64,000 nt of DNA, from NCBI RefSeq assembly GCF_030013595.1, contig NZ_CP122771.1; one strand, 5' to 3'. This document shows positions 6,512 through 35,155 of this stretch, one piece after another; position 1 is the stretch's first letter; each line of letters starts with the position of its first letter. The position numbers and the translations under genes are program-made. Under the pieces are notes generated by a model, which was given only the letters and a program-made list of their open reading frames with translations, was not told where the DNA came from and did no database searches. Origin of the DNA: Escherichia coli (lineage in GTDB: Bacteria; Pseudomonadota; Gammaproteobacteria; Enterobacterales; Enterobacteriaceae).

Positions 6512-8358
6512 AACGTATGTTACCTCTGATACTGGCTCTGGTTGCCGGCATGGCACAGGCTGACAGCAACAGTGATTACCGGGCCGGTTCTGATTTTGCT
6601 CACCAGATCAAAGGACAGGGAAGCAGCAGTATTCAGGGCTTTAAGCCACAGGAGAGTATCCCCGGCTATAACGCGCATCCGGACGAGACAAAATATTACG
6701 GTGGCGTGACTGCCGGCGGGGATGGCGGCCTGAAAAATGACGGCACCACGGAATGGGCGACCGGTGAAACCGGAAAAACCATCACAGAGTCCTTCATGAA
6801 CAAGCCGAAAGACATTCTTTCACCGGATGCACCGTTCATTCAGACCGGCAGGGATGTGGTGAACCGGGCTGACAGCATTGTGGGAAACACAGGCCAGCAG
6901 TGTAGTGCACAGCAGATAAACCGCAGTGAATTCACAAACTATACCTGTGAACGGGACACGATGGTGGAGGAGTATTGCACACGGACTGCCAGGATCACCG
7001 GAGACTGGAAATACACAGATGAATATCGTGAGGTGACGATACCGCACTCACAGTTCCGGTTCAGTATGAACGGGCTGAAACTGGTGTTCAGTGTCACGGC
7101 TCCGGTAACCGGTACAGTGGAAAGTGCATCATTGTCTGTATACGCCGCTTTTTTCTTCCTGAACTCTCGTTATACCTTCATGAATTCAACGTTCAATGTT
7201 GGCCTGGTAAACGGGCAGTCGGGTACTTTCCCCCTGTCCGGGGCGACAGGTTTGCAGGTGACACAAGGGCAGGTTCTGACCGGCAGTGGCTGTACTGCTA
7301 ACGGTAACTGTCTTTCTGGCGGGAACGGTGACCGACAGGTTTATGAGAAACTGGCCAGCGGCGCGTCCACCTTTACACTGAAACTCAGGATGAAGGTCCG
7401 TGATAAAGAATGGGTTCCACGGGTGGAGTGGGTGGAGAGTTGTCCGTTTAATAAAGCGGATGGCGTGCTGAAAGGCACTGAGTGTTCAGAGCCGGGTGGT
7501 ACGAAAACTGGTGTGATGGAAGGTAAACCCTGGAGCATCACACAGGCGTGCTGGGCATACCGGGATAAATATGTCACACAGTCCGCAGATAATGGTACCT
7601 GTCAGAAATATGTCGATAATCCGGCCTGTACGCTGGCCTCACGTCAGTGCGCGTTTTATTCCGATGAGGGAACCTGTCTGCATGAGTATGCCACGTACTC
7701 CTGCGAGTCAAAAACATCAGGAAAAGTGATGGTCTGTGGTGGTGATGTCTTCTGCCTTGACGGTGAATGCGATAAGGCGCAGAGCGGAAAAAACAGTGAT
7801 TTTGGTGCAGCCGTATCACAGCTGGCTGCGCTTGCCGCTGCTGGTAAGGATGTTGCCGCCCTGAATGGTGTGGATGTCAGGGCTTTCACCGGCGAGGCGA
7901 AATTCTGCCGTAAGGCCGCAGCCGGCTTCAGTAACTGCTGTAAGGATGGTGGCTGGGGTCAGGATGTGGGTCTGGCGAAGTGTAACAGTGAAGAAAAGGC
8001 GCTGGGAAAGGCAAAGGACAACAAACTGACGGTGAGTGTTGGCGAGTTCTGTTCGAAAAAGGTACTCGGTGTCTGCCTGCAGAAAAAGCGCAGCTACTGC
8101 CAGTTTGATTCGAAACTGGCGCAGATAGTCCAGCAGCAGGGGCGTAACGGGCAGCTGCGTATCGGGTTTGGCAGCGCCAAAAGTCCTGACTGTCGTGGAA
8201 TAACCGTGGATGAACTGCAGCGTATTAAGTTCGACCAGCTGGACTTCACTAACTTCTACGAAGACCTGATGAATAACCAGAAAATCCCGGACAGTGGTGT
8301 TCTGACGCAGAAAGTGAAAGAACAGATTGCTGACCAGCTGAAACAGGCAGGACAGTAA
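6508..8358 (+). CDS. traN: TraN, outer-membrane mating-pair stabilisation protein
   Basis: 616 aa, signal peptide MKRMLPLILALVAGMAQA, cysteine-rich C-terminal half; matches F TraN. Confidence 0.95.
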   Translation: MKRMLPLILALVAGMAQADSNSDYRAGSDFAHQIKGQGSSSIQGFKPQESIPGYNAHPDETKYYGGVTAGGDGGLKNDGTTEWATGETGKTITESFMNKPKDILSPDAPFIQTGRDVVNRADSIVGNTGQQCSAQQINRSEFTNYTCERDTMVEEYCTRTARITGDWKYTDEYREVTIPHSQFRFSMNGLKLVFSVTAPVTGTVESASLSVYAAFFFLNSRYTFMNSTFNVGLVNGQSGTFPLSGATGLQVTQGQVLTGSGCTANGNCLSGGNGDRQVYEKLASGASTFTLKLRMKVRDKEWVPRVEWVESCPFNKADGVLKGTECSEPGGTKTGVMEGKPWSITQACWAYRDKYVTQSADNGTCQKYVDNPACTLASRQCAFYSDEGTCLHEYATYSCESKTSGKVMVCGGDVFCLDGECDKAQSGKNSDFGAAVSQLAALAAAGKDVAALNGVDVRAFTGEAKFCRKAAAGFSNCCKDGGWGQDVGLAKCNSEEKALGKAKDNKLTVSVGEFCSKKVLGVCLQKKRSYCQFDSKLAQIVQQQGRNGQLRIGFGSAKSPDCRGITVDELQRIKFDQLDFTNFYEDLMNNQKIPDSGVLTQKVKEQIADQLKQAGQ

Positions 8359-8381
8359 AGCAGGGAAAATAACCGGGGAAA

Positions 8382-8642
8382 ATGATGAAGGTCATATTCA
8401 CTTCTAATCGTATTGTTGATTTTATTATCCGGCTTTTGATTACAGCGATTGTCATTTCTCCGGTAATTATCTGGTCGTGGGATACGGTAAAAGAAACCAC
8501 GGCAGACGGGATGCTTGCCGCTGCTTTCGTTATCCTTTACTCCGGTGTGCTCCTGTTTATTCTGTATTTTTGTTTTTCTGCCCTGACTGACCTGCAGAAA
8601 CCTGATGAAAGAAAAAGTGATGAAAGGAATGAAGATGAATAA
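8382..8642 (+). CDS. trbE: TrbE
   Basis: 86-aa small membrane protein between traN and traF as in F. Confidence 0.75.
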   Translation: MMKVIFTSNRIVDFIIRLLITAIVISPVIIWSWDTVKETTADGMLAAAFVILYSGVLLFILYFCFSALTDLQKPDERKSDERNEDE

Positions 8643-9378
8643 AGCATTACTGCCACTGTTACTCTGCTGCTTTATTTTTCCGGCGTCAGGAAAAGATGCA
8701 GGCTGGCAGTGGTATAACGAGAAAATAAATCCGAAGGAAAAAGAAAATAAACCTGTACCTGCAGCCCCCCGTCAGGAACCGGATATTATGCAGAAACTGG
8801 CCGCACTGCAGACGGCAACAAAGCGGGCGCTGTACGAAGCCATTCTGTATCCCGGCGTGGATAATTTTGTGAAATATTTCCGGCTGCAAAATTACTGGAC
8901 TCAGCAGGCCGGGCTTTTCACCATGAGCGCCAGAAAGGCCATGCTGGCGCATCCCGAACTGGACTATAACCTGCAGTACAGCCATTACAACGGCACGGTC
9001 CGGAACCAGCTGGCGGCAGACCAGGCGCAGCAGCGACAGGCCATTGCGAAACTGGCTGAACACTACGGCATCATGTTTTTTTACCGGGGGCAGGACCCCA
9101 TCGACGGGCAACTGGCGCAGGTCATTAATGGCTTCCGGGATACGTATGGTCTGAGTGTTATTCCCGTTTCCGTGGATGGCGTGATTAATCCGCTGTTGCC
9201 GGATTCCCGGACTGACCAGGGGCAGGCGCAGCGCCTCGGCGTGAAATATTTCCCGGCCATGATGCTGGTTGACCCGAAACAGGGCAGTGTTCGCCCGTTA
9301 TCATACGGCTTTATTTCGCAGGACGACCTGGCAAAACAGTTCCTGAACGTTTCTGAAGATTTTAAACCCAATTTTTAA
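8635..9378 (+). CDS. traF: TraF, thioredoxin-fold pilus assembly protein
   Basis: ATG 8635 gives MNKALLPLLLCCFIFPASGKDAGWQWYNEK..., 247 aa as in F TraF. Confidence 0.9.
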   Translation: MNKALLPLLLCCFIFPASGKDAGWQWYNEKINPKEKENKPVPAAPRQEPDIMQKLAALQTATKRALYEAILYPGVDNFVKYFRLQNYWTQQAGLFTMSARKAMLAHPELDYNLQYSHYNGTVRNQLAADQAQQRQAIAKLAEHYGIMFFYRGQDPIDGQLAQVINGFRDTYGLSVIPVSVDGVINPLLPDSRTDQGQAQRLGVKYFPAMMLVDPKQGSVRPLSYGFISQDDLAKQFLNVSEDFKPNF

Positions 9379-9393
9379 TCGCGGATTTGATTT

Positions 9394-9741
9394 ATGAGTG
9401 AAGATTATTTGAAAATGTTTACAGGTGTTGTTCTGTTAATATTTGTCATTATTGCCGGTTATTTCTTTTCTGAGCGTAATGACAGGAAAATGTTTCTCCT
9501 GAGCTCACTGGTTTTCCTTGTTATTAATATCGCGTGTTTATATGTGCTTACCGCCAGTCTCTGGTTTCTGTGTGGTGCAATTATGAGTCAGGGCGCAGCA
9601 CTGGTTGTTTCAATAGTTGCGGCCGCATTACCGGACGTTACGAGCTTCGACAGGTTCAGAAGAATATTTATCTGTATTATGTTGTCATCGGTATGGTCCG
9701 GAGTGATGTGGTTTTTTATAAGGGGGCTTATGACAGGCTAA
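9394..9741 (+). CDS. trbA: TrbA
   Basis: 115-aa hydrophobic protein following traF; same size and position as F TrbA. Confidence 0.8.
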   Translation: MSEDYLKMFTGVVLLIFVIIAGYFFSERNDRKMFLLSSLVFLVINIACLYVLTASLWFLCGAIMSQGAALVVSIVAAALPDVTSFDRFRRIFICIMLSSVWSGVMWFFIRGLMTG

Positions 9742-9796
9742 GTCATATAAAACGGTCATAAAAACCATACAAAATAATGAGGTTGATTACTGAAGA

Positions 9797-10057
9797 TCAT
9801 ATGATAAACCATACCGCAATCCAGTGGCTTCTGAATAGCTCGCAAAAATAAATATAGATAATTGAAAATAACCATAATACAACGATGCCTGCTGCGATAC
9901 TTAATAAACTTATTACAAGATAGTCAGGGAAGGCATTGACCGGTAATGAATGTGATGCTGCATATATCAGCGCAATAATTGCCGCATTTCCCAGTAACGA
10001 CTCTCTTATTATGTTTCTGATTATTTCCAGTTTTTCTTTAAAAGATCGCTTTTCCAT
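9797..10057 (-). CDS. artA: ArtA-like membrane protein on the anti-tra strand
   Basis: Only convincing minus-strand ORF in the tra operon; AT-rich and hydrophobic; position between trbA and traQ matches F artA. Confidence 0.55.
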   Translation of the reverse strand: MEKRSFKEKLEIIRNIIRESLLGNAAIIALIYAASHSLPVNAFPDYLVISLLSIAAGIVVLWLFSIIYIYFCELFRSHWIAVWFII

Positions 10058-10137
10058 TTGTACCTCTGATTAATATCACACAAACGCGAATATTACAGAC
10101 ATGAATACTCTCATGTAAATAATAACCGGAGTTTAAC

Positions 10138-10422
10138 ATGATAAGTAAACGCAGATTCTCTTTACCCCGGCTTGATATTACGGGAATGTGGGTATTTTCC
10201 CTGGGTGTCTGGTTTCATATCGTCGCCCGTCTTGTTTACAGCAAACCCTGGATGGCTTTTTTTCTGGCGGAGCTGATTGCGGCCATCCTTGTGCTGTTCG
10301 GCGCATACCAGGTGCTGGATGCATGGATTGCCCGTGTCAGCCGGGAAGAGCGTGAGGCACTGGAAGCCAGGCAACAGGCCATGATGGCAGAGCAGCAGGA
10401 GGGCGGACATGTCTCTCACTAA
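10138..10422 (+). CDS. traQ: TraQ, pilin chaperone
   Basis: 94 aa with N-terminus MISKRRFSLPRLDITGMWVF as recalled for F TraQ. Confidence 0.85.
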   Translation: MISKRRFSLPRLDITGMWVFSLGVWFHIVARLVYSKPWMAFFLAELIAAILVLFGAYQVLDAWIARVSREEREALEARQQAMMAEQQEGGHVSH

Positions 10423-10954
10423 ATTACTGCCGGTCATTTTGTTGATGATGGCCACAGGTGTGCAGGCCTCCACCCGGGATGAAATTGAACGACTCTGGAA
10501 TCCGCAGGGTATGGCCGCGCAGCCTGCACAACCGGCAGCAGACACATCAGCCAGGACAGAAAAGCCGGCTCCCCGCTGGTTCCGCCTCAGCAACGGCAGG
10601 CAGGTTAACCTGGCCGACTGGAAGGTGGTGCTGTTTATGCAGGGGCATTGCCCTTACTGCCACCAGTTTGACCCGGTACTGAAGCAGTTGGCACAGCAGT
10701 ACGGCTTTTCCGTTTTTCCCTACACCCTGGATGGTCAGGGGGATACCGCCTTTCCGGAAGCATTACCGGTGCCACCGGAGGTGATGCAGACCTTCTTCCC
10801 GAATATCCCGGTGGCCACACCGACCACCTTCCTGGTCAACGTCAACACGCTTGAGGCATTACCGCTTTTACAGGGGGCAACGGATGCCGCCGGTTTTATG
10901 GCGCGGATGGATACCGTTCTGCAGATGTACGGAGGAAAAAAAGGTGCGAAATAA
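10409..10954 (+). CDS. trbB: TrbB, periplasmic thioredoxin-like disulfide isomerase
   Basis: 181 aa, signal peptide, CPYC active-site motif; size as F TrbB. Confidence 0.9.
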   Translation: MSLTKLLPVILLMMATGVQASTRDEIERLWNPQGMAAQPAQPAADTSARTEKPAPRWFRLSNGRQVNLADWKVVLFMQGHCPYCHQFDPVLKQLAQQYGFSVFPYTLDGQGDTAFPEALPVPPEVMQTFFPNIPVATPTTFLVNVNTLEALPLLQGATDAAGFMARMDTVLQMYGGKKGAK

Positions 10955-29967: not shown

Positions 29968-30174
29968 ATGAAGTACCTTAACACTACTGATTGTAGCCTC
30001 TTCCTTGCAGAGAGGTCAAAGTTTATGACGAAATATGCCCTTATCGGGTTGCTCGCCGTGTGCGCCACGGTGTTGTGTTTTTCACTGATATTCAGGGAAC
30101 GGTTATGTGAGCTGAATATTTACAGGGGAAATACAGTGGTGCAGGTAACTCTGGCCTACGAAGCACGGAAGTAA
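29968..30174 (+). CDS. SrnB' overlapping leader ORF (mok-like) of the srnB locus
   Basis: ATG 29968 in frame with the toxin; MKYLNTTDCSLFLAERSKF... precedes the toxin Met. Confidence 0.5.
   Translation: MKYLNTTDCSLFLAERSKFMTKYALIGLLAVCATVLCFSLIFRERLCELNIYRGNTVVQVTLAYEARK
30025..30174 (+). CDS. srnB: SrnB, Hok/Gef-family membrane toxin
   Basis: 49-aa peptide MTKYALIGLLAVCATVLCFSLIFRERLCELNIYRGNTVVQVTLAYEARK matches recalled F SrnB/Hok family. Confidence 0.8.
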   Translation: MTKYALIGLLAVCATVLCFSLIFRERLCELNIYRGNTVVQVTLAYEARK

Positions 30175-30457
30175 GCTGCCGGGCGGGGACGGAAGTCCCC
30201 GCTTTCCGGAAGTGTGAGGTATTTCAGGGGCAGACACCCGACATGCCAGAAACAGCCGGTCCCGCCCGGGGCCGGCATCCTGGTTAAGGCATTTCCTGCT
30301 TTTCAGTCATTTCATTATCAAAATCACATTAAACGGTCGTAATCAGACATGATTTGTGCGCCAACACAGATCTTCGTCACAATTCTCAAGTCGCTGATTT
30401 CAAAAAACTGTAGTATCCTCTGCGAAACGATCCCTGTTTGAGTATTGAGGAGGCGAG

Positions 30458-30706
30458 ATGTCGCAGACAGAAAATGCAGTGACTTCCTCATCAGGTACAA
30501 AGCGAGCATACAGAAAAGGTAATCCTCTGACGCTTGCAGAACGTCAGCAGGCATCCCTGGCAAGAAAACGAGCTACACATAAAGAACTCAGAGTGTTCAT
30601 TCCTGCTGCGTTAAAAGCGCAATTGCAGGTGATGTGTGAAGCTGAGGGCGTTACCCAGGCTGAGATGATTGCCGAACTGATAAAGCAGAAGAGTGCTTTT
30701 AGCTAA
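30458..30706 (+). CDS. repA2: CopB (RepA2), transcriptional repressor of repA
   Basis: 82 aa with N-terminus [24 protein letters not shown] as recalled for IncFII CopB. Confidence 0.85.
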
Positions 30707-30949
30707 CTAAAATGTAGCGACATCACATTCTTGCCTGTTTCTGGTGTGCGTGATAGATTGCTGATCGTTTAAGGAATTTTGTGGCTGGCCACGCCGTAAG
30801 GTGGCAGGGAACTGGTTCTGATGTGGATTTACAGGAGCCAGAAAAGCGAAAACCCCGATAATCTTTCTATGTTTGGCGACGAAGAAGATTACCGGGGCCA
30901 TCTAAAAACCGTATAGCCAACAATTCAGCTATGCGGGGAGTATAGTTAT

Positions 30950-31024
30950 ATGCCCGGAAAAGTTCAAGACTTCTTTCTGTGCTCACTCCTTCTGCGCATT
31001 GTAAGTGCAGGATGGTGTGACTGA
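30950..31024 (+). CDS. tap: Tap leader peptide (RepA6) translationally coupled to repA1
   Basis: 24-codon [27 protein letters not shown] whose stop overlaps the repA1 GTG start, as in R1/R100. Confidence 0.55.
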
Positions 31025-31874
31025 TCTTCAACAAACGTATTACCGCCAGGTAAAGAACCCGAATCCGGTGTTCACACCCCGTGAAGGTGCCGGAACACTG
31101 AAGTTCTGCGAAAAACTGATGGAAAAGGCGGTGGGCTTCACCTCCCGTTTTGATTTCGCTATTCATGTGGCGCATGCCCGTTCGAAGGGACTGCGTCGGC
31201 GCATGCCACCGGTGCTGCGTCGACGGGCTATTGATGCACTGCTGCAGGGGCTGTGTTTCCACTATGACCCGCTGGCCAACCGTGTCCAGTGCTCCATCAC
31301 CACGCTGGCCATTGAGTGCGGGCTGGCGACGGAGTCTGCTGCCGGAAAACTCTCTATCACCCGAGCCACCCGCGCCCTGACGTTCCTCGCAGAGCTGGGC
31401 CTGATTACCTACCAGACGGAATATGACCCGCTTATCGGGTGCTACATTCCGACCGACATCACGTTCACACCGGCACTGTTTGCCGCTCTCGATGTGTCTG
31501 AGGTGGCGGTGGCAGCTGCGCGCCGCAGTCGTGTGGAATGGGAAAACAGACAGCGCAAGAAGCAGGGACTGGATGCACTGGGTATGGATGAACTGATAGC
31601 GAAAGCCTGGCGTTTTGTGCGTGAGCGTTTCCGCAGTTACCAGACAGAGCTTAAGTCCCGGGGAATAAAGCGTGCCCGTGCGCGTCGTGATGCGGACAGG
31701 GAACGTCAGGATATTGTCACCCTGGTGAAACGGCAGCTGACGCGCGAAATCGCGGAAGGGCGCTTCACTGCTAATCGTGAGGCAGTAAAACGCGAAGTGG
31801 AGCGTCGTGTGAAGGAGCGCATGATTCTGTCACGTAACCGTAATTACAGCCGGCTGGCCACAGCTTCCCCCTGA
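31017..31874 (+). CDS. repA1: RepA1, IncFII replication initiator (GTG start)
   Basis: 285 aa starting [30 protein letters not shown]; matches recalled R100 RepA1. Confidence 0.9.
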
Positions 31875-32049
31875 AAGTGACTTCTCCTGAATAATCCGGC
31901 CCGCGCCGGAGGCATTCGCACGCCTGAAGCCTGTCAGCGAACAAAAAAGCAGCACTGCATACAAAAAACAATCTCATCATCCACCTTCAGGTGCATCCGG
32001 TTCCCCCTGTTTTTGATGCAAAACACCTCCCACAGACGGGTAATTTTGC

Positions 32050-32058
32050 TTATCCACA
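32050..32058 (+). promoter_or_regulatory. DnaA box (TTATCCACA) in the probable oriR downstream of repA1
   Basis: Perfect consensus 9-mer about 175 bp after the repA1 stop, where the IncFII origin lies. Confidence 0.4.
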
Positions 32059-32786
32059 TTTAACTGCAAGGGACTTCCCCATAAGGTTACAACCGTTCAT
32101 GTCATAAAGCGCCAGCCGTCAGCGTTACAGGGTGCAATGTATCTTTTAAACACCTGTTTATATCTCCTTTAAACTACTTAATTACATTCATTTAAAAAGA
32201 AAACCTATTCACTGCCTGTCCTGTGGACAGACAGATATGCACCTCCCACCGCAAGCGGCGGGCCCCGACCAGAAACTATTTAGTTACAACACTCAAATAC
32301 AACCACCGGAAGAACCCCGGTCCCGCGCAGAACTGAAACCACAAAGCCCCTCCTCATAACTGAAAAGCGAGGCCGCCCCCGCCCAAAGGGCGGGAACAAC
32401 ATCGCTTTTAATTATGAATGTTGTAACTACATTATCATCGCTGCCAGTTCTCTGGCTGGAAGTCCTCAGTACACGCTCGTAAGCGGCCCTCACGGCCCGC
32501 TAACGCGGAGATACGCCCCGACTTCGGGTAAACCCTTGTCGGGACCACTCCGACCGCGCACAGAAGCTCTCTCATGGCTGAAAGCGGGTATGGTCTGGCA
32601 GGGCCGGGGATGGGTAAGGTGAAATCTATCAATCAGTACCGGCTTACGCCGGGCTTCGGCGGTTTTACTCCTGTATCATATGAAACAACAGAGTGCCGCC
32701 TTCCATGCCGCTGATGCGGCATATCCTGGTGACGATATCTGAATCGTTATATACTGTGTATATACGTAGTAATGACGAGGTGATAA

Positions 32787-33056
32787 ATGGCACAGGTTAA
32801 TATGAGTTTAAGAATCGACGCTGAACTGAAGGATGCTTTTATGGCCGCTGCAAAAAGCATGGACCGTAATGGCTCTCAGTTAATCCGGGATTTTATGCGC
32901 CAGACCGTTGAACGGCAGCATAATACCTGGTTCCGTGACCAGGTTGCGGCAGGACGTCAGCAACTCGAGCACGGCGATGTGCTTCCCCATGACATGGTCG
33001 AATCTTCTGCTGCTGCATGGCGGGATGAGATGAGCAGGAAGATTGCCGGTAAATGA
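32787..33056 (+). CDS. Ribbon-helix-helix antitoxin (RelB/ParD-like)
   Basis: 89 aa, MAQVNMSLRIDAELKDAFMAAAKSMDRNGSQLIRDFMRQ is a typical RHH; stop overlaps the downstream start (ATGATG). Confidence 0.7.
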   Translation: MAQVNMSLRIDAELKDAFMAAAKSMDRNGSQLIRDFMRQTVERQHNTWFRDQVAAGRQQLEHGDVLPHDMVESSAAAWRDEMSRKIAGK

Positions 33057-33217
33057 TGGAGATATTTTGGACCATGCTGGCCAGCCAGGACAGGAAGCGC
33101 ATTCGTGAGTACATTGCGGAGCAGAACCTGATGGTCGCCATTGAACTGGACGAACGGATTGGTTATTTCGGACGAACGCACCGGCTTACGCCGGTTTTAC
33201 ATCTGTACTACATGTAA
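33056..33217 (+). pseudogene. Truncated RelE/ParE-like toxin (53 codons)
   Basis: Reading frame MEIFWTMLASQDRKRIREYIAEQNLMVAIELDERIGYFGRTHRLTPVLHLYYM runs into the repeat motif accggcttacgccgg and stops; too short for a functional toxin. Confidence 0.45.
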
Positions 33218-33264
33218 CCTCATACACACATAAATGAGTAACATACTGATTAATATGGTAAATC

Positions 33265-34188
33265 ATGACGATTGAAAGCTTTTTTATTGGCACCCGCCGC
33301 TCTGATAAACGTTACGGGCCTCAGAGCAAGGATATGCAGGTTTCTGAATTCATTTCTCTGATTTCTCCCCAAAATGCCCCTCATAAGGTTGTGTTACCTG
33401 ATTTTACTGGTCTGGCAATTCAGCTTGATGCACAAATCAGGAACCAGTTTCATCAACTGAAAGAGGATGAGCACTTCCTTCGATATCGGCAGTTGTCGGA
33501 AAGGTGGTATCAGGCGGACTCTATTAGTGACAGAAACAACCGCAGTAAGCGTTTTGAGAAGATCATGGATGACTCACTTGATTTTTTGCTTTACAGCCAA
33601 GACGTCATGCCTAACATCAATCCAGATGATCTCCAATGGCATGATTACGAAAAGGCTAGCAGTAAGGGTAAAATGTACTGTGTAGCGCTTCTGTTCCATG
33701 TCATTGCACGGGCTGCATATGAACCCGAATCTGTGGGTAAAGATCCGACACTTCCAGAATATTGCCGGTGGATGAAAAATTGGATAGAGAAAACATTAGG
33801 TCATGATTTTTTAGATAGAATGATGATCTATTGTGCGCTGTTTGCCCCAGCGTATTTTCCCGCGTTACAACGTCTGAGCGGAGAGAAAGAAACGCGTGAT
33901 GTCCATGAATTCCTGGCTGAGCATGTTCGCACTTTAGCTCAAAAAAATTCTTCAGAGGTAAATTATAGAGATCAACGGCAATTCACGTTTGGCTACACCA
34001 TGTTCACGAAGCAACAATTTGAATTTCTGGGCATGATGCGCGATGTCCATTACCGGATTGATTGTATTGAACAGCTCCTTCTGGACCTTATAGAACGTAA
34101 GGTTGTGGATTTCACTGATGCATCTGTTGCAGGCACGTGGATTGAGAAGCAAATTCAGCGGCTTGAATCAAACGACGTAAAGCAGTAA
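33265..34188 (+). CDS. Hypothetical protein (307 aa), orphan
   Basis: Long ORF with ATG start immediately after the truncated toxin; no recognisable family. Confidence 0.5.
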   Translation: MTIESFFIGTRRSDKRYGPQSKDMQVSEFISLISPQNAPHKVVLPDFTGLAIQLDAQIRNQFHQLKEDEHFLRYRQLSERWYQADSISDRNNRSKRFEKIMDDSLDFLLYSQDVMPNINPDDLQWHDYEKASSKGKMYCVALLFHVIARAAYEPESVGKDPTLPEYCRWMKNWIEKTLGHDFLDRMMIYCALFAPAYFPALQRLSGEKETRDVHEFLAEHVRTLAQKNSSEVNYRDQRQFTFGYTMFTKQQFEFLGMMRDVHYRIDCIEQLLLDLIERKVVDFTDASVAGTWIEKQIQRLESNDVKQ

Positions 34189-34807
34189 CCCTCTGAACTG
34201 TAAATTGGGTAGTCAGATTTAATTATTGGCACCTGTTCATAGGTGCCACCTTTCTGAAAGAATGTATCCTAATTTTTCGATATCCAAACTGACCCCTATT
34301 TTAGATGTTTCATTTATCACACCCTAAAGCTGAATATTTATCACAAGCCATTTTTACCGATAAATAACTAAGGCGATCAATGCCAATGGACTTACAATAA
34401 TAAACAGATTCTTTTTTGCTATTCAGGTTCGTAACACGGGGTCTGAAGTCCAATGGAACGAAAACGTACGTTAGTGAAGTAACTGTATGATATATCAAGA
34501 CATAATGGACATAGAAAAACGCCATCAAAACGGTGTCTTTTTAATCGAAAATTGGCACTTAACGGACGGCATTGTCTACTAATCGATTTTTAGACGATAA
34601 TTTTCCTCTTACCGTACATTTTCGTACGGTTGGCCCTCAAACCCCGATTTGAACTCAATCGGATAACCTGAATGCAATACCGCAATGGCGATAATTTAAA
34701 AGCGATAGCCGTTGACGCAAAATCAATCCGTTACGCATCTCTATTGGTTAAATAATGCGCTTAACGTACAAAATTTTCCCATATCCAAACTGACCCCTTA
34801 AAGGACA

Positions 34808-35155
34808 TCAACACGCATTCGGCGTTTTTTCTTGTCCAATTGTGATTTTCGTGAGCTCCGTATCAGTGAAATTTCCCTTTCCTGATTCTGTGTCAAAGTC
34901 ACCAGGTTTGAACCGGTGTACATCCTGCCATATAGAGAAACAGGTGTGGCAGGTGACAGGCAGTTCTCCATCAGCCACCTTTTCGCAGTTTTCAATCAGT
35001 ACCCGTTCCTTATTGTATTGTAAGTTATAACCACTTGTGCAAAGCGTTTCATACCCGTGAGCGCCTGTCACGATATGTGTGGCAATCCGTTCCCTGACTT
35101 TTCCGTTCACTAATAACTGTTCACGTGTGGTGATCGTTCGCATTCTCTTCCTCAT
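34808..35155 (-). CDS. Hypothetical protein (115 aa) with Cys/His pattern
   Basis: Minus-strand ORF convergent with the 307-aa gene; RBS-like ggaaa before ATG; cysteines and histidines suggest possible metal binding. Confidence 0.4.
   Translation of the reverse strand: MRKRMRTITTREQLLVNGKVRERIATHIVTGAHGYETLCTSGYNLQYNKERVLIENCEKVADGELPVTCHTCFSIWQDVHRFKPGDFDTESGKGNFTDTELTKITIGQEKTPNAC

Follow-up and report, generated by a model that had tools for sequence, protein, structure and literature searches.

In a 64,000-nt stretch of Escherichia coli contig NZ_CP122771.1 (assembly GCF_030013595.1), hereafter the window, an intact RHH antitoxin gene is overlapped by a RelE/ParE-like frame of 53 codons, and a 15-nt motif found upstream of the antitoxin recurs inside this short frame. 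The arrangement raises the question of whether the toxin gene has been truncated and, if so, whether the repeated motif was the site of the lesion, as the original prediction proposed.

The plasmid is of the conjugative F type, and the locus sits in its replication region, where the origin region is located between the IncFII RepA gene and the 89-aa antitoxin ORF (Table 1). CopA alone was matched when 30000-35000 was searched against Rfam families. An inverted pair containing GTTGTAACTA, at 32278-32295 and 32415-32432, flanks the region just downstream of oriR; it resembles the Tus-binding Ter sites of the R1/R100 replicon.

Table 1. Coordinates of the features in the window and of the corresponding genes on metagenomic contig L018.
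Sequence	Feature	Coordinates	Strand	Description
Window	CopA RNA	30844-30932		Rfam search
Window	IncFII RepA	31005-31874
Window	Post-origin repeat A	32465..32718	+	Non-coding; between RepFIIA ori/Ter region and yacA promoter
Window	yacA	32787..33056	+	Intact RHH type II antitoxin, 89 aa
Window	yacB pseudogene	33056..33166	+	First 37 codons of 92-aa ParE-family toxin
Window	53-codon read-through frame	33056..33217	+	37 YacB codons plus 16 unrelated codons
Window	Post-origin repeat B remnant	33167..33221	+	55 nt; alignment, native repeat-B contexts, blastn
Window	ORF307, conserved hypothetical	33265..34188	+	Segment begins at J2 (33221|33222)
L018	Repeat A
L018	yacA	7825-8094
L018	yacB	8091-8372
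L018	yacC	8407-9255		3'-5' exonuclease
L018	orf160	9371-9853
L018	Repeat B	9963-10210
L018	RHH	10277-10561
L018	ParE	10561-10836

An intact yacA is followed by a truncated yacB

The antitoxin of the window shares 96.6% identity over 89 aa with YacA of p92944, which is paired with an intact YacB, and the protein of the same locus carries the name YacA in RefSeq. Its match to TIGR02384 (RelB/DinJ; E 2e-5, 24.7 bits) lies under the curated cutoff of 45.65, and in the PDB it is matched weakly by CopG-family regulators (E 0.3-0.4). The yacA stop and the yacB start overlap by 1 nt (ATGA).

Full-length YacB, as encoded by p92944-NDM and by a second copy in plasmid ETEC4067, is a protein of 92 aa that is annotated in >1,000 plasmids and passes the RelE/StbE model TIGR02385, scoring 33.1 bits where 27.9 are required. 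Among solved structures, its nearest relative is ParE2 (5cw7; E 8.5e-8, residues 3-92). In a tblastn search, residues 1-37 of this protein mapped to 33056-33166 with 94.6% identity as the sole match, and neither the remaining 55 residues nor a second yacB was present anywhere in the 64 kb. The overlapping 53-codon frame does run as predicted, from an ATG at 33056 to a TAA at 33215-33217, but its product matched no family in NCBIfam. After codon 37, the frame continues for 16 codons as FGRTHRLTPVLHLYYM, whereas in p746, pETEC_73 and pFORC31.3 the tail is FGRTYRLTPGFGGFTPVLHVTSYTHK, comprising 26 codons, so that the product measures 53 aa in the window versus 63 aa in p746; this difference between sister plasmids results from a 10-nt difference in the DNA downstream, the repeat B remnant described below. 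Because the C-terminus is altered by a non-coding indel and the whole beta-sheet of the fold is missing, the 53-codon ORF is a pseudogene. A ParE-RelE toxin has a complete fold of ~90 aa, with N-terminal helices and a C-terminal beta-sheet, that matches the family model; judged by homology, the yacB stump would comprise only the N-terminal helical part of that fold plus a junk tail, and it is predicted to have lost toxicity. [quoted passage not shown]

The original prediction is partly borne out by these results. The antitoxin is an intact 89-aa ORF, and a RelE/ParE-type toxin was indeed truncated by a recombination or deletion junction, with the 3' 60% of the gene gone. Alignment with full-length homologous loci showed identity to 33167 followed by divergence, and native toxins of about 50 aa, which would have contradicted the prediction, did not emerge: the full-length toxin is 92 aa long.

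The lesion lies upstream of the motif, at a short patch shared with a second repeat

According to the alignments, homology to intact yacB ends at 33167, placing the break (J1) at 33167/33168. A continuous match from 32560 to 33167, followed by divergence, was obtained for >1,300 plasmids among the matches listed in a megablast search of PLSDB, in which the genes are annotated as yacA/yacB. The frame had been described as stopping exactly where it enters the motif; instead, the break precedes the motif, which starts at 33180, by 12 nt, and the frame reaches its stop codon 21 nt past the motif. The recurrence of the motif itself is real: the 15-mer ACCGGCTTACGCCGG is present exactly twice in the 64 kb, at 32638-32652 and 33180-33194, with 0 copies expected from 100 shuffles, and the likeness of the two copies exceeds the 15 nt (38 nt at 74%).

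The two copies belong to two related repeats. Copy 1 is held by repeat A, a stretch of ~250 nt that also contains a terminator-like hairpin with a T-run (32647-32661) and is 80-83% identical to a repeat B found in L018, L015 and L028. Copy 2 is held by a remnant of repeat B, through which the yacB' frame runs to its TAA. The copy 2 of the window lineage is without 10 nt (GCTTCGGCGG) that are kept in p746 and L018, and copy 2 of the IncI-gamma/K1 plasmids p746, pETEC_73 and pFORC31.3 is near-identical to copy 1 over ~45 nt. Copy 2 is preceded by 12 nt (TTCGGACGAACG) that are unlike the left flank of copy 1. When metagenome contigs were scanned with a degenerate version of these 12 nt plus the motif, 13 loci were recovered, and in 12 of them the 12-nt flank stood in its native, untruncated context, namely a repeat B with a second RHH-ParE pair behind it. 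The motif thus came along as a passenger of the repeat B remnant.

The crossover itself can be placed in a different short patch. Positions 33156-33167 of the window align to both yacB and repeat B with an 11-nt similarity. The patch reads GGATTGGTTAT on the yacB side and GGACTGGTGAT on the repeat B side, and (A)TTC comes next in each. J1 contains one extra T that a clean exchange within the ATTC microhomology would not leave. As read from these alignments, J1 bears the signature of short-homology illegitimate recombination, not that of a site-specific event at the motif, which the original prediction had taken for the junction.

The order of genes before the deletion was reconstructed mainly from one metagenomic contig, L018, an IncI-complex plasmid with a RepZ-like initiator (Table 1), and partial support came from the finished plasmid pBCE049-1 (L028), which carries repeat B, the RHH-ParE pair and a yacB-side fragment. 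Deleting L018 8206-10117 (~1.9 kb) recreates the junction of the window. The intact yacAB-yacC modules of p92944-NDM and L018 share the upstream repeat, yacA and the first 111 nt of yacB with the window at 94-97% identity, but differ from it in that their toxin still has all 92 aa and the exonuclease gene behind it is still present. The feature is thus very probably a deletion scar, in which a yacB stump was left beside an intact yacA after the loss of ~1.9 kb.

Under this explanation, the ancestor would have carried, downstream of an IncI-complex or IncFII origin, repeat A, yacA, yacB, yacC, orf160, repeat B and the RHH-ParE pair. Short-homology recombination would then have fused yacB codon 37/38 to repeat B, 12 nt upstream of the hairpin motif, removing the beta-sheet half of the toxin, yacC, orf160 and most of repeat B. 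At a second junction (J2, 33221|33222), 55 nt beyond J1, the repeat B remnant joins unrelated DNA with ORF307, and the GC content falls from ~52% to ~43% across the junctions; the joining of the remnant to this lower-GC segment would be a separate event. Neither J1 without J2 nor an intact repeat B before ORF307 was found in PLSDB or in the metagenome scan; either junction may have come first, and J1 may have originated by a single intramolecular deletion or by exchange between two plasmids. Throughout, yacA would have persisted as a presumed autoregulated orphan antitoxin.

We also considered insertion sequences as the cause. IS-mediated deletion is unlikely, as the junction is free of IS ends, inverted repeats and target duplications, and the IS91, IS21 and IS66 insertions seen in relatives occupy other positions and are later.

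Distribution of the scar

Across PLSDB, 55 plasmids, whose hosts are E. coli, E. albertii, Shigella and Salmonella, contain the complete stretch from yacA through yacB', the repeat B remnant and the spacer. The same junction occurs in 69 of 5,426 complete E. coli genomes, 1,260 of which contain any yacB match. It lies behind IncFII as well as IncI-gamma/K1 replicons, including those of the old ETEC plasmids p746, pETEC_73 and NC_007635. The IncF setting proposed earlier was therefore right for the backbone of this plasmid, which is IncFII, but too narrow for the junction. All 56 PLSDB plasmids carrying ORF307 have it tied to the scar, save for IS-broken copies, and the ORF307 side differs by up to ~5% among scar plasmids.

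The lesion as a RefSeq pseudogene, and an orphan YacA with a dead YacB in pWR100, are already public; the new detail is limited to the anatomy of the scar, that is, the remnant of a second post-origin repeat and the short-homology crossover.

yacA as an orphan antitoxin

The antitoxin ORF is intact and the window contains no complete cognate toxin gene, in keeping with an orphan antitoxin, which has no cognate toxin on its replicon. The near-identical 66-kb plasmid CP122741.1 likewise shows no ParE/RelE toxin among the annotations of its first 50 kb. Since both the ORF and the upstream sequence common to intact yacAB loci have been kept, YacA is presumably still produced as an autoregulated orphan antitoxin. 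Just 5' of the yacA ribosome-binding site, a perfect palindrome, GTATATAC, stands within a larger imperfect inverted repeat (32745-32775); it is kept in all yacA loci aligned and is a candidate YacA operator. A promoter scan of 32745-32775 found no consensus sigma-70 promoter.

Known systems offer several parallels. In Shigella flexneri pWR100, yacB was killed by a 2-nt insertion leading to a premature stop (PMC5658099), YacA (Orf176) is described as an orphan antitoxin that is also a substrate of type III secretion (PMC5658099; reviewed in PMC7354431), and yacAB is listed as inactive in pINV (PMC9455713). This plasmid resembles the window in that both have this gene pair behind a RepFIIA-type replicon, and in both a dead toxin accompanies an intact antitoxin (PMC5658099, PMC7354431, PMC9455713). 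The lesions differ, being a 2-nt insertion in pWR100 and, in the window, a deletion that fuses codon 37 to the remnant of the second post-origin repeat; the secretion of YacA is a report for Shigella. A Caulobacter parD beside a parE pseudogene is another example of an orphan antitoxin (reviewed in PMC7354431). As in the window, an intact antitoxin there adjoins a degraded cognate toxin, and by analogy cross-neutralisation of homologous toxins from incoming plasmids would be possible. A more distant comparison is provided by PaaA2-ParE2 of E. coli O157:H7 (5cw7, 5cze, 5czf), in which ParE2 is the nearest solved relative of full-length YacB at low identity, and PaaA2 weakly matches YacA residues 27-77 (E 0.22). 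PaaA2 is without an RHH DNA-binding domain, whereas YacA appears to have one, and of the toxin the window codes for just the first 37 residues.

Given the 96.6% identity of the window YacA to one whose partner YacB is intact, it is plausible, on sequence grounds, that the orphan could neutralise YacB of other plasmids. Whether the orphan yacA, perhaps with the 37-residue YacB stub, is under selection, either for anti-addiction against YacB or as a promoter or regulator driving ORF307, is a separate matter; we regard this as a tentative reading that is rather less likely than not to be correct. In its favour, yacA is an intact CDS in all RefSeq-annotated records among the 55 scar plasmids and in 8/8 of the scar-bearing loci that were translated, and its pN/pS is low (0.17 in scar-bearing loci vs 0.14 in intact loci). 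This ratio is nevertheless weak evidence of ongoing selection, since intact alleles share the majority of the yacA polymorphisms seen in scar-bearing loci, suggesting import by recombination, and a 270-nt ORF would usually survive so little divergence by chance. The same reading draws on independent losses of yacB with yacA kept, for which pUMNK88_Hly, pSE11-2 and pWR100 (PMC5658099) provide three cases. In pUMNK88_Hly (L032, 1817-2100), yacB is replaced right after the yacA stop by DNA leading to hlyC, and in pSE11-2 (L033, 2080-2356), yacB is frameshifted after residue 62; yacA is intact in both. Coexistence was also seen, as ETEC4067 has an intact yacAB in addition to its orphan yacA. Finally, ORF307 has just 43 nt of its own upstream DNA, which would suit a regulatory role of the yacA region. 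Against this reading, the tail of the stub varies between sister plasmids. Selection on the orphan would complement the deletion scar as an explanation without taking its place.

Alongside the yacB alleles of other plasmids that are frameshifted or deleted outright, the deletion scar adds another instance of toxin-first decay of an addiction module with the antitoxin retained. The part possibly worth further work is whether orphan YacA confers immunity to YacB post-segregational killing by competing plasmids.

Repeats as boundaries of exchangeable cassettes

Mosaics around the ~250-nt repeat were seen in several plasmids. In pMTY2805_IncBOKZ (L030, ~1550-1720), A-type sequence gives way to B-type immediately past GGCGGTTTT, and an RHH-ParE pair replaces yacAB directly behind the replicon. 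In ETEC4067 (L001, 7020-7180), the second yacAB is bordered by B-like sequence on the left and A-type sequence on the right, and the cargo between repeats A and B differs between L015, where it consists of four unrelated genes, and L018. Repeats of this family lie at cassette boundaries, most simply as a result of homologous recombination of ~80% identical copies. The idea of a recombination junction at the motif, advanced in the original prediction, consequently has some merit across these plasmids, though not in the lesion of the window.

A broader version would make the ~250-nt post-origin repeat a portable homology scaffold for repeatedly swapping, deleting or replacing toxin-antitoxin and cargo cassettes just past the origin of IncFII/IncI-complex plasmids, with the orphan yacA kept for disarming YacB. 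We consider this speculative and improbable as a whole; if it were true, the orphan yacA would help its carrier to coexist with, or displace, the very common yacAB plasmids.

The motif, formed by a hairpin, a T-run and an adjacent short palindrome, might also have been a recombination site in its own right, at which the truncation arose. The mosaics are what would speak for it, as the repeat around the motif is the boundary in those plasmids, but they are accounted for by ordinary homologous recombination between the ~80% identical copies. The break in the window lies within motif-free yacB coding sequence, no recombinase gene of the kind expected for a site-specific system is adjacent, and the hairpin folds no better than shuffled sequence (z -0.6 to -1.6). 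This origin of the truncation is very unlikely.

Other roles for the motif were examined. The same folding result gave it no support as a stable RNA hairpin or terminator; in a simple terminator scan, copy 1 passed and copy 2 of the window failed. It was rejected as part of ORF307, whose diverged homologues (35-67% identity) are without an upstream motif. The motif lies roughly at the position where we would assume the R1 primase 'G-site' to be, and a search of the literature for such a site near this position found nothing. A 46-aa ORF at 32574-32714 extends over motif copy 1 and is given as a hypothetical protein in certain RefSeq records. The peptide YRLTPGFGGFTPV of this ORF is repeated in the yacB' tail of p746-type plasmids for the sole reason that duplicated DNA is read in the same frame, and the ORF is probably not a gene.

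Annotation of the stump

The RefSeq label "yacB, incomplete, missing C-terminus" is given to 111 nt in NZ_CP070078.1 and pANT_60, whereas certain GenBank-only records name the short ORF a 'type II toxin-antitoxin system RelE/ParE family toxin'. Despite that label and the preserved ATGA start overlap with yacA, it is extremely improbable that the 53-codon ORF encodes a real toxin of short length or that the truncation is an assembly artefact, because its product matches no family and is missing everything past residue 37 relative to a homologue aligned over residues 3-92, its tail is variable, and the identical junction recurs across many independent complete assemblies. The deletion-scar explanation thus corrects a possible mis-annotation, and plasmid typing and toxin-antitoxin censuses should score this plasmid lineage as yacB-negative.

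ORF307 and its flanks

No match to ORF307 was found in Pfam, NCBIfam, PADLOC or PHROGs. Its AlphaFold model is all-alpha (pLDDT 72.8), and no PDB fold matched the model at E <= 0.001. Homologues of 35-67% identity are present in Enterobacterales and Aeromonas in variable mobile contexts, with AbiC-like, TIR (CAP12-PCTIR), DUF4238, VapBC and TacAT genes as neighbours. A 308-aa ORF located after repeat A in L015 was checked as a relative of ORF307 and proved to be unrelated. In the porcine ETEC plasmid ETEC4067 (NZ_CP122686.1; L001, 5210-7725), ORF307 is interrupted by IS91, and the complete second yacAB arrived together with this insertion.

The AT-rich intergenic DNA 3' of ORF307 (34438-34648) is 97% identical to DNA just upstream of repeat B in L023 (4059-4270), where the counterpart lies on the other side of the repeat. 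This likeness may record how the ORF307 segment was acquired.
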